A DNA stretch of 64,000 nt from Escherichia coli (lineage in GTDB: Bacteria > Pseudomonadota > Gammaproteobacteria > Enterobacterales > Enterobacteriaceae): assembly GCF_051903065.1 (NCBI RefSeq), contig NZ_CP178438.1. One strand, given 5' to 3'. Shown here piece by piece: positions 8,782 through 9,934 of the stretch. The translations under genes and the position numbers were made by a program. A model generated the notes under the pieces. It saw nothing but the letters and a program-made list of their open reading frames with translations, was not told the DNA's origin and did not search any database. The number at the start of each line of letters is the position of its first letter. The first letter of the stretch is position 1.

Positions 8782-9894
8782 ATGGAATCGCTCTCAGAAG
8801 GAACCACAGCAGGCTACCAGCAAATCCACGACGGCATTATTCATCTGGTCGATAGCGCCCGGACGGAAACGGTACGTAGCGTTAACGCGCTGATGACCGC
8901 GACATACTGGGAAATTGGCCGACGAATTGTCGAATTTGAACAAGGTGGCGAGGCCAGGGCTGCGTATGGTGCGCAGCTAATCAAGCGACTATCAAAGGAT
9001 TTAAGTCTAAGGTATAAGCGTGGATTTTCCACCAGGAATTTATGGCAGTTTAAGAATTTTTATATTTGTTTTCAAAGAATTGAAATTGTGCAGACACTGT
9101 CTGCACAATTCACCCCCACAATTCTCCAGACTGTGTCTGGAGAATCTTGCCATTTAGCGCAACTCGCCAAATCCTTCCCCCTGCCCTGGTCCACCTACGT
9201 CCGTTTACTTTCCGTTAAAAACGCTGACGCCCGCAGCTTTTATGAAAAAGAGACGCTCCGCTGTGGCTGGTCTGTTCGCCAGCTAGAACGGCAAATTGCG
9301 ACCCAATTTTATGAGCGAACACTGCTGTCACATGACAAATCAGCCATGCTGCAACAACACGCTCCTGCCGAGACGCATATTCTTCCGCAACAGGCGATAC
9401 GCGATCCCTTTGTGCTCGAATTTCTGGAATTGAAAGATGAATACTCAGAATCCGATTTTGAGGAGGCGCTGATCAACCACCTGATGGATTTCATGCTGGA
9501 ACTTGGGGATGATTTTGCCTTTGTTGGTCGGCAGCGAAGGTTACGCATTGATGACAACTGGTTTCGGGTCGATCTGTTGTTTTTCCACCGCCGTTTACGC
9601 TGCCTGCTAATCGTGGATCTAAAAGTGGGCAAATTCAGCTATAGCGATGCCGGACAGATGAATATGTATCTCAACTACGCCAAAGAGCACTGGACGCTAC
9701 CGGATGAAAATCCGCCCATCGGTCTGGTTCTCTGTGCAGAGAAAGGAGTCGGAGAAGCGCATTATGCACTGTCTGGTTTGCCTAACACCGTTCTGGCGAG
9801 TGAATATAAGATGCAACTACCTGATGAAAAACGACTCGCGGATGAACTCGTTCGAACACAGGCGGTGCTAGAAGAAGGCTATAGACTCCGTTAA
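8782..9894 (+). CDS. yhcG: DUF1016 / YhcG-family PD-(D/E)XK nuclease-like protein, function unknown
   Basis: 370-aa ORF; the C-terminal part carries a PD-(D/E)XK-like core (FRVDLLFF ... LIVDLKVGK); the N-terminal region resembles YhcG-family proteins (YWEIGRRIVE..., RNLWQFKNFY, WSVRQLERQI). Confidence 0.75.
   Translation: MESLSEGTTAGYQQIHDGIIHLVDSARTETVRSVNALMTATYWEIGRRIVEFEQGGEARAAYGAQLIKRLSKDLSLRYKRGFSTRNLWQFKNFYICFQRIEIVQTLSAQFTPTILQTVSGESCHLAQLAKSFPLPWSTYVRLLSVKNADARSFYEKETLRCGWSVRQLERQIATQFYERTLLSHDKSAMLQQHAPAETHILPQQAIRDPFVLEFLELKDEYSESDFEEALINHLMDFMLELGDDFAFVGRQRRLRIDDNWFRVDLLFFHRRLRCLLIVDLKVGKFSYSDAGQMNMYLNYAKEHWTLPDENPPIGLVLCAEKGVGEAHYALSGLPNTVLASEYKMQLPDEKRLADELVRTQAVLEEGYRLR
9084..9110. 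repeat. Perfect 13-1-13 palindrome aattgtgcagaca-c-tgtctgcacaatt, inside the yhcG reading frame (encodes VQTLSAQ)
   Basis: Read directly from the sequence; the two arms are exact reverse complements. Confidence 0.9.
9121..9145. repeat. Inverted repeat with 11-bp arms and a 3-bp spacer, attctccagac-tgt-gtctggagaat, inside the yhcG reading frame (encodes ILQTVSGE)
   Basis: Read directly from the sequence; shares the attct...agaat flanks and the cagac/gtctg core with the palindrome at 9910-9934. Confidence 0.9.
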
Positions 9895-9909
9895 TTTCAG
9901 CGGTTTCGA

Positions 9910-9934
9910 ATTCTGCAGACACTGTCTGCAGAAT
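9910..9934. repeat. Perfect 12-1-12 palindrome attctgcagaca-c-tgtctgcagaat, 16 bp past the yhcG stop codon, between the convergent yhcG and yhcH
   Basis: Read directly from the sequence; the core tgcagacactgtctgca is identical to the intragenic copy at 9084-9110. Could also act as a bidirectional terminator-like hairpin. Confidence 0.9.

Follow-up and report, generated by a model that had tools for sequence, protein, structure and literature searches.

Three perfect palindromes in and just after yhcG, in a 64-kb stretch of E. coli DNA (the window), are, judging from the homologues compared below, copies of one ancient element carried by the DUF1016/YhcG genes of Bacteria and Archaea. The symmetry of this element is held at the nucleotide level: the arms form Watson-Crick pairs, they change on both sides together, and their synonymous codons are set by the pairing. 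We think it probable, with moderate confidence, that a hairpin- or cruciform-prone palindrome is kept perfect by templated copying, with mRNA 3' ends and recombination affected as side effects. An earlier note on this DNA had located the three inverted repeats, and its coordinates proved exact and all three repeats perfect (Table 1). The core that it saw them share, CAGACNNNGTCTG, occurs three times in the 64 kb, always at a yhcG palindrome, compared with 0.03 expected occurrences. Similarly, a search of both strands for TGCAGACACTGTCTGCA with up to three mismatches gave six matches against 0.13 expected, five of them at the three palindromes. The further copies that the note proposed to look for are missing from the rest of the 64 kb but exist beyond it, as a copy after gltD in K-12 (P0) and as family-wide copies in homologous genes. 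A literature search found no paper linking DUF1016 or YhcG to a palindrome and no prior description of the element.

The palindromes lie in a linker that varies greatly among homologues. At 37–58% identity, the segment from FYxxY to LSWSHY spans 9 to 85 residues, often with two to four copies of a lineage-specific short motif (QTLS, NTLS, ETVFS, YTVC, HNSVV, YAVRS or QPVA). Using a 12-sequence alignment, we drew a sample of 80 diverse loci, of which 78 were analysable, from Burkholderiales, Pseudomonas, Acidobacteria, Brocadia, cyanobacteria, Bacteroidota, Firmicutes, Nanoarchaeota and Methanoperedens. A perfect linker palindrome with an arm of at least 8 was present in 65 of the 78 loci, at 8.2 per kb compared with 0.24 per kb elsewhere. 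The median best arm was 11 in the linker versus 4 in 1,639 control windows of equal size taken from these genes (p = 1e-47), and in 67 of the 78 loci no control window matched the linker value. The geometry is nearly constant: of 92 palindromes, all but one have a base at their centre, and this base is codon position 1 in 90 of the 91. The consensus, AATT-NNN-CAGACA-[C/G]-TGTCTG-N'N'N'-AATT, is about 27 bp long; the bases at arm offsets 6–9 vary yet stay 79–100% complementary, the symmetry extends to offset 12–13 and then falls to the chance level, and the centre is C in 51 cases and G in 47. The longest arms among the genome loci, 21 bp and perfect (TCCTGCCGAATTCGCTACACA-G-TGTGTAGCGAATTCGGCAGGA), are in a Kiritimatiellales metagenome-assembled genome (L063, 1346–1388), and arms of up to 34 occur among the metagenome matches listed.

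Furthermore, the palindrome persists in distant plasmid homologues. At 29–35% identity, 8 of 10 such homologues, a set that includes the LPWGH branch in Actinobacteria and Legionella, have a palindrome at the same site, and its centre falls on codon position 1 in all six that could be scored by anchor search. The cores of these palindromes are unrelated (GTCGTGAC..GTCACGAC, CGTATC..GATACG, GCGCAACA..TGTTGCGC and GGCCAACA..TGTTGGCC), and only the outer AATT is constant. In the flanks of the 78 loci, we found no further copies in promoters or after stop codons, only paralogous genes; P0 and the copy after the yhcG stop codon therefore reflect the history of the Escherichia locus and not a rule of the family.

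Is it the peptide or the nucleic acid that is being conserved? To avoid selecting for symmetry, QTxS motifs were picked by peptide alone. Their serine codon is TCT in 72 of 73 motifs, compared with 16% elsewhere in the same genes (p = 2e-51), and in genes with at least 58% GC, it is TCT in 19 of 19, against a background of 5%. Threonine is encoded by ACA or ACG in 96% (background 48%) and glutamine by CAG in 90% (background 56%). Covariation across the 78 sequences agrees: 91.3% of cells were paired compared with 67.5% after shuffling, and 211 cells had changed on both sides compared with 60, neither value being reached in 500 shuffles; slid controls gave 23–41% paired. The palindrome is also kept where the peptide is different (ETVSR, ESLIR, QSVTG, HAVRG, IAQQAVAQ and IVVTLSRQ). 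In an AlphaFold2 model of YhcG (mean predicted local distance difference test score, pLDDT, 79.5), the palindrome-encoded residues form a loop between helices 84–96 and 120–129, with pLDDT below 50 at residues 103–111 and 114–117. The codon bias, the covariation and the low-confidence loop together indicate that the constraint is on DNA or RNA and that the peptide follows from it. The earlier note had reasoned that a conserved peptide whose palindrome is lost in distant DUF1016 homologues would argue for coincidence; the homologues compared here show the opposite.

Table 1. Features of the yhcG locus, with positions in the 64-kb window.
Feature	Position	Strand	Structure or content	Reading
gltD	7180–8598	+	Open reading frame (ORF) upstream of yhcG	
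yhcG	8782–9894	+	370 aa; DUF1016_N + YhcG_C PD-(D/E)XK nuclease domain; carries the palindromes	
nanQ/yhcH	9954–10418	−	Convergent with yhcG	
Linker-coding segment	9073–9180	+	About residues 98–133, between the conserved ...NFYICF helix and the LPWSTY helix	
Copy 1 (P1)	9084–9110		AATTGTGCAGACA-C-TGTCTGCACAATT; perfect 13-1-13; encodes IVQTLSAQF	Read as ancestral, family-wide palindrome
Copy 2 (P2)	9121–9145		ATTCTCCAGAC-TGT-GTCTGGAGAAT; perfect 11-3-11; encodes ILQTVSGE	Read as in-frame tandem duplicate, unit 36 nt
Relic	9895–9937		Directly after the stop codon; reads FQRFRILQTLSAES; includes copy 3	Read as relic of yhcG mid-gene segment
Copy 3 (P4)	9910–9934		ATTCTGCAGACA-C-TGTCTGCAGAAT; perfect 12-1-12; yhcG–nanQ spacer	

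Within the window, the first two copies lie in frame in the yhcG open reading frame (ORF), as the earlier note had described, with peptides IVQTLSAQ and ILQTVSGE; the third begins 16 nt past the last base of the stop codon, in the spacer between convergent genes. Measured from centre to centre, copies 1 and 2 are separated by exactly 36 nt (12 codons), and they belong to a direct-repeat family of that spacing. The orthologue of copy 1 stands alone in other lineages, perfect in Salmonella, with one mismatch in C. koseri and as a one-mismatch hybrid in the cryptic Escherichia clades, and copy 2 is absent from Salmonella, Citrobacter, Kluyvera and others. YhcG proteins contain one to three QTxS units in Escherichia and Pseudocitrobacter and one in other genera. 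On this comparison of genera, copy 1 is the ancestral copy and copy 2 an in-frame 36-bp tandem duplicate, which bears out the suggestion that a small palindromic unit had duplicated in frame, with a copy number of one to three among alleles. The insert of about 24 codons that had also been suggested was half right: 12 codons are extra relative to other Enterobacteriaceae, but the other 12 (ESCHLAQLAKSFP) are common to that family and extra only relative to homologues with a minimal linker (...QTVSGKLSWSHY). In the Pfam alignment, 161 YhcG residues aligned to 136 model positions.

The similarity of copy 3 to copy 1 begins about 15 nt before the palindrome itself (40 nt at 80%, matching 9070–9109), and the segment can still be read in frame as given in Table 1; it thus looks like a stranded piece of coding sequence rather than an independent site. 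E. coli and the cryptic Escherichia clades have this segment, a relic of the middle of yhcG, whereas Pseudocitrobacter, C. koseri and Salmonella lack it; the relic is confined to the genus Escherichia.

The history of the locus in E. coli was read from mapped representative alleles; of 5,426 complete genomes, 5,078 had a match to the region and in 3,348 most of it was present. In K-12 there are three internal copies, P4 and the fifth copy P0, which directly follows the gltD stop codon and marks the left boundary of the gltF-yhcADEF insertion. The O157 allele has one internal copy, some yhcG alleles are truncated at or near the palindromes, and in one allele (L004) unrelated DNA takes over exactly where the third copy ends on its right side. 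Hybrid joins between copies (for example, IRQT-A-SAKSFP) reveal recombination inside the palindromes. Other strains have no yhcG at all: their spacer, matched over at least 80% in 948 genomes, consists of gltD, the left flank of P0, a single palindrome, the right flank of P4 and nanQ, the P4 right flank being orthologous to the flank of that single palindrome. Since Salmonella, C. koseri and Pseudocitrobacter also have yhcG between gltD and the nan genes, it is ancestral at this position, and the yhcG-less state is best read as a deletion by recombination between P0 and P4.

The gltD–nanQ interval is an insertion/deletion hot spot. In the L004 allele (1043–1384; E. coli BS15R-A), about 500 bp of other sequence stands in place of the post-stop palindrome and the C-terminal two thirds of yhcG; it carries a 101-aa ORF annotated as a "transposase", which gave no match in NCBIfam. 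In E. coli PRO_A-1420-6M-A (L006, 1068–2281), an element of the insertion sequence (IS) family IS3 lies in yhcG, about 75 bp upstream of the first palindrome, and K-12 carries IS5 inside yhcE.

The window itself has the ancestral arrangement downstream of gltD. Just after the gltD stop codon, at 8608–8640, is an inverted repeat (CAGCGCCGCCTC / GAGTCGGCGCTG); the sequence around it is common to the cryptic Escherichia clades and has a diverged form in Pseudocitrobacter, so it is probably the ancestral gltD terminator region. In K-12-type strains, this region is replaced by P0 and the gltF-yhcADEF block. Another perfect inverted repeat, with 11-nt arms 27 nt apart (GATTCCATTAT / ATAATGGAATC; 8741–8789), has its right arm over the yhcG start codon and could occlude the start codon or be a regulatory site. 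The yhcG gene of the window is nearly identical to that of K-12 except for a short, strongly diverged block (about 9023–9170) around the palindromes, where the window's GFSTRNLWQFKNFYICFQRIEI is closer to Pseudocitrobacter and Salmonella than to the GFSAKNLRQMRLFYLFFQHVEI of K-12. This resemblance to other genera suggests that the segment was imported or is mosaic, its breakpoints being close to the palindromes.

Could the palindromes also act on transcripts? In K-12 Term-seq data (Adams et al. 2021, PMC7815308), whose column format (50 nt upstream, 3' end, 10 nt downstream) we checked on the SgrS row, the primary 3' end of gltD is at 3360660. Set against P0, this position is 2–3 nt beyond the base of the stem; the P0 hairpin thus creates or protects the 3' end of the gltD mRNA in vivo in K-12. 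The hairpin of copy 3 is stable on both strands (−15.6 to −22.5 kcal/mol, z −3.5 to −6.0), and the palindrome hairpins overall (about −15.6 to −23 kcal/mol, z −3.5 to −6.7) have the GC-rich stem of an intrinsic terminator. A terminator scan of both strands made no call at 9910–9934; the tails (plus strand, CUUUAAAAC; minus strand, UCGAAACC) have no U-rich tract, and a canonical intrinsic terminator there was rejected for want of a call and a T-run. Nevertheless, given a hairpin stable on both strands, a position between convergent genes, and a spacer in which a relative, Pseudocitrobacter, has a canonical REP-like terminator, copy 3 is likely to be a hairpin at an mRNA 3' end. The terminator role that had been proposed for it is therefore plausible: the stable hairpin and the sister copy at the gltD 3' end favor it, and the lack of a T-run does not.

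Term-seq (PMC7815308) records other 3' ends near yhcG in K-12 MG1655, which fall outside the gene content of the strain that the window comes from. A very strong one at 3367641 (−) belongs to the non-coding RNA G0-10703, antisense to yhcF and just upstream of yhcG, which has been proposed to be antisense to the yhcG 5' untranslated region (PMC7967276). The other two are Rho-dependent, one at 3367906 (+), about 80 nt into yhcG, and an antisense one inside yhcG at 3368581 (−).

How would a palindrome stay perfect for so long? In the reading that we prefer, the palindromic DNA would be prone to form a hairpin or cruciform, and the two arms would be kept identical by copying from arm to arm during replication or repair, that is, by quasipalindrome template switching. 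Intra-palindrome template switching is a known mutational process in E. coli. In-frame duplications, deletions and exchanges of segments would be concentrated at such a palindrome, and they would explain the alleles with one to three copies, the hybrid copies, the truncated genes and the P0–P4 deletion of yhcG. Where a copy is transcribed outside an ORF, its hairpin would mark or protect an mRNA 3' end. Templated copying is favored by the perfect Watson-Crick arms, the matched double changes, the flips of the centre, the tandem duplication and the breakpoints at the palindrome; the matched double changes, centre flips and hybrid copies are patterns read from sequence.

Several observations weigh against this proposal. 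Extrusion and template switching at yhcG are argued from the established genetics of E. coli quasipalindromes. The centres used for the covariation count were chosen for maximal pairing, which biases the inner pairs; the outer pairs and the codon test are unbiased. About 22% of the metagenome matches listed lie outside recognizable DUF1016 genes. With regard to transcripts, copy 3 is not called as a canonical terminator and has no T-run; Term-seq (PMC7815308) lists no 3' end at P4 or at the internal K-12 copies, possibly because of low expression; and the Rho-dependent antisense 3' end inside yhcG suggests that nan-operon transcripts read through P4. Finally, about 83% of the deeply diverged lineages have retained the palindrome, its symmetry stops sharply at offset 13 and the outer AATT is constant, which together suggest selection for more than neutral templating.

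Because templated copying alone leaves this retention, the sharp 27-bp boundary and the constant AATT unexplained, selection for function is a serious possibility. The palindrome may then be a selected cis-acting DNA hairpin or cruciform that YhcG/DUF1016 proteins, as candidate defence nucleases, use as a functional element, a view that we hold tentatively and as the less probable of the two. YhcG consists of DUF1016_N (PF17761) followed by the YhcG_C PD-(D/E)XK domain (PF06250), with a nuclease fold closest to NucS, the FokI cleavage domain and Can2. It matches the PADLOC profile hidden Markov models for PDC-S02, a candidate single-gene family of phage defence (E = 2.9e-134), and has no match in NCBIfam. 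About 24,000 DUF1016 clusters at 50% identity were matched, and the genes are found inside type I restriction-modification operons, beside integrases and on conjugative plasmids. The paper on programmed inversion describes DUF1016 genes as adjoining inversion targets without being targets themselves. Our literature search found no published function for YhcG or DUF1016. For a junction- or structure-specific PD-(D/E)XK nuclease, the element could be a self-recognition or autoregulatory site; alternatively, it could be a built-in recombination site for exchanging N-terminal and nuclease modules or for tuning copy number.

The constraint might instead act on RNA, through a selected hairpin in the yhcG mRNA that serves as an attenuator or as a site of processing, stability or translational autoregulation and so controls the downstream nuclease domain. 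The pair of hairpins at 9075–9155 folds stably (−33 kcal/mol, z = −7.2), an mRNA 3' end is set in vivo by the sister copy P0, the element comes after the N-terminal helices and before the remainder of a nuclease that is probably toxic, and it is kept across the DUF1016 family. The pattern of substitution, however, is not that of an RNA helix. Despite the 211 double-sided changes, the G-U intermediates that such a helix would tolerate are nearly absent (about 5 G-U-type pairs inside the stem in about 860 cells), and the tolerated mismatches show no G:T bias (3 G:T, 4 A:C and 7 other). Pairing continues into the would-be loop, at 95% for offset 2 and 65% for offset 1, and the centre is C or G equally, favoring neither strand. 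Nor is there a U-tract, a recorded 3' end at the internal K-12 copies, or an Rfam match at E ≤ 1 in 8500–10500, even with permissive filters. The scarcity of G-U, the unbiased mismatches, the pairing in the loop and the neutral centre argue against a selected RNA helix and for DNA symmetry or templated copying, and we consider the RNA hairpin rather unlikely.

The earlier note had also suggested a recognition site for a protein, which would be a duplex-DNA site read by a sequence-specific dimer, be it YhcG itself, a regulator or a recombinase. Odd-centred interrupted palindromes are of the kind recognized by PD-(D/E)XK enzymes, and YhcG is a PD-(D/E)XK nuclease; the core contains GACNNNGTC, the core and the outer AATT are conserved within subfamilies, the equal frequency of C and G at the centre is what a homodimer would allow, and rearrangement junctions lie at the palindrome edges. 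Against this, the half-site is not the same at every copy: the internal K-12 copies differ from one another at offsets 6–9, although two of them have perfect symmetry and the first misses it by a single base, so that one protein could not read them all, and in distant homologues the cores are entirely different. Perfect symmetry over 25–31 bp exceeds what an operator needs, natural operators are usually imperfect, and the promoters and flanks of the 78 loci contain no further sites. A single sequence-specific reader is thus unlikely to be the reason for the symmetry, the suggestion is not supported in this form, and we regard a dimer site as distinctly improbable. Likenesses to the lac operator (AATTGTG...CACAATT), matS, the met-box and the C-box were considered and set aside on sequence or spacing.

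Might the palindrome be a small mobile element, inserting or copying itself and sometimes landing in frame, in the manner of repetitive extragenic palindromic (REP) sequences, Rickettsia palindromic elements (RPEs) or miniature inverted-repeat transposable elements? When the consensus was searched as plain DNA, viral contigs gave 25 matches, 15 of them inside DUF1016 ORFs, and metagenome contigs gave at least 124, of which 97 of the 124 listed (78%) had DUF1016 signal around them; the N positions, too, were complementary in 92 of those 124, where chance predicts 1 in 64. What remains of the viral and metagenome matches consists of gene remnants, copies in non-coding sequence or cases at contig edges. 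The pattern belongs largely to the DUF1016 family, and free-standing copies, although recurrent, are a minority that may reflect some capacity for copying elsewhere.

Some of these copies have telling surroundings. On one viral contig (L112), a 179-nt direct repeat, 94% identical and reading as a piece from the middle of a DUF1016 gene with two palindromes (4686–4864 and 6008–6186), flanks a 1.3-kb block of two ORFs (176 and 126 aa) beside a tyrosine-integrase-like gene, an architecture that matches P1...P4 of E. coli. On another (L114, 3206–3232), two overlapping ORFs that, by their sequence, resemble the AAA+ and C-terminal portions of a split RarA/MgsA-like ATPase meet at a consensus palindrome with 13-bp arms, the upstream ORF ending in ...RIFQTLSGKLEGAC*; we found no other clear case in a gene of another kind. 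Three metagenome contigs (L130, at about 3670, L132 and L136) share a non-coding segment (...YKPVVLGYLIYQTVSGKLSSA*KLNMPWEICLTRF... when translated) that carries the palindrome in different upstream contexts, and in two of them, L130 and L132, the ORF before it looks by eye like an IS3-family transposase; the segment may be repeated or mobile DNA, or else what is left of decayed DUF1016 genes.

Mobility would fit the free-standing P0 and P4, the metagenome matches outside DUF1016 genes, the copy at the split RarA-like gene and the repeats around the two-gene block. However, homologues spanning 29% to 98% identity keep both the position and the frame, the 64-kb window has no other copies, many free-standing copies still have flanking DUF1016 coding remnants, and no transposase is consistently nearby. 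Genomes have a median of three and at most six places with the element, and the five places in K-12 equal in number the copies mapped at the yhcG locus. A mobile element is therefore very doubtful. Coincidence, in which a conserved QTxS peptide, common as that motif is in the DUF1016 family, merely happens to have palindromic codons, can practically be dismissed, as the synonymous codons are fixed to their pairing partners whatever the GC content of the genome, the arms are complementary well beyond the motif, lineages with other peptides keep the symmetry, and copies outside ORFs are also perfect.

A palindrome that is codon-locked and covaries on two arms, in organisms as far apart as E. coli, Actinobacteria and archaea, speaks strongly for a DNA-level constraint inside coding sequence. 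YhcG/DUF1016 is a very large uncharacterized nuclease family, a candidate for phage defence that is common in restriction-modification operons, plasmids and integrative elements. If the palindrome is a functional element, it offers a handle on how the nuclease acts, as substrate, regulator or recombination site, and a cis-acting role would mean that a protein family carries its own nucleic-acid structural element within its coding sequence across Bacteria and Archaea. If templating maintains it, this would be a clear natural case of a palindrome perpetuating itself by templated correction over very long times. For E. coli, the palindromes explain the length variants of yhcG (349 to 382 aa) and its frequent truncation, as well as the clean loss of yhcG along with gltF-yhcADEF in many strains.

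The element resembles several known systems in part. Like integron attC and other hairpin recombination sites, the palindromes bound exchanged DNA blocks, and duplicated segments flank a block (P1...P4 and L112). Unlike attC, they have no R/L boxes or extrahelical bases (the arms end in AATT, with no obvious R box, GTTRRRY), the site is inside a gene, and no integron integrase is consistently nearby, in neighbourhoods that were not surveyed systematically. RPEs are likewise palindromic DNA translated in frame without disrupting the protein. They (Ogata et al. 2000 and 2002, cited in PMC4316617) are 100–150 nt long, mobile and present in many unrelated genes of one genus, whereas the yhcG element is 27 bp long and occupies a fixed site in one gene family across phyla.

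With REP sequences and the bacterial interspersed mosaic elements (BIMEs), it shares palindromic, hairpin-forming structure and extragenic copies between convergent genes and at mRNA 3' ends (P0). REP/BIME sequences, however, are imperfect, about 35 bp long, extragenic, present in hundreds of copies per genome with their own consensus, and linked to REP-associated tyrosine transposases (RAYTs), whereas the yhcG element is perfect, found at one locus per genome, mainly intragenic and unlike REP in consensus. Intrinsic terminators and 3'-end stem-loops have in common with it a stable GC-containing stem between convergent genes and, at P0, a 3' end 2–3 nt past the stem; unlike them, it has no U-tract, is not called by a simple scan and lies mostly inside an ORF.

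The templated copying that we prefer has its parallel in quasipalindrome hot spots in E. coli, reportedly explained by the Ripley model and followed with lacZ and thyA reporters in the Lovett laboratory, in which the arms of short inverted repeats are made identical by intramolecular strand switching. That model predicts Watson-Crick-only perfection, matched changes in the two arms, a centre that flips, and duplications and deletions close by, and the yhcG palindromes show each of these. On the other hand, those hot spots concern arbitrary genes over laboratory time, whereas the yhcG palindrome occupies one codon-locked position across Bacteria and Archaea.

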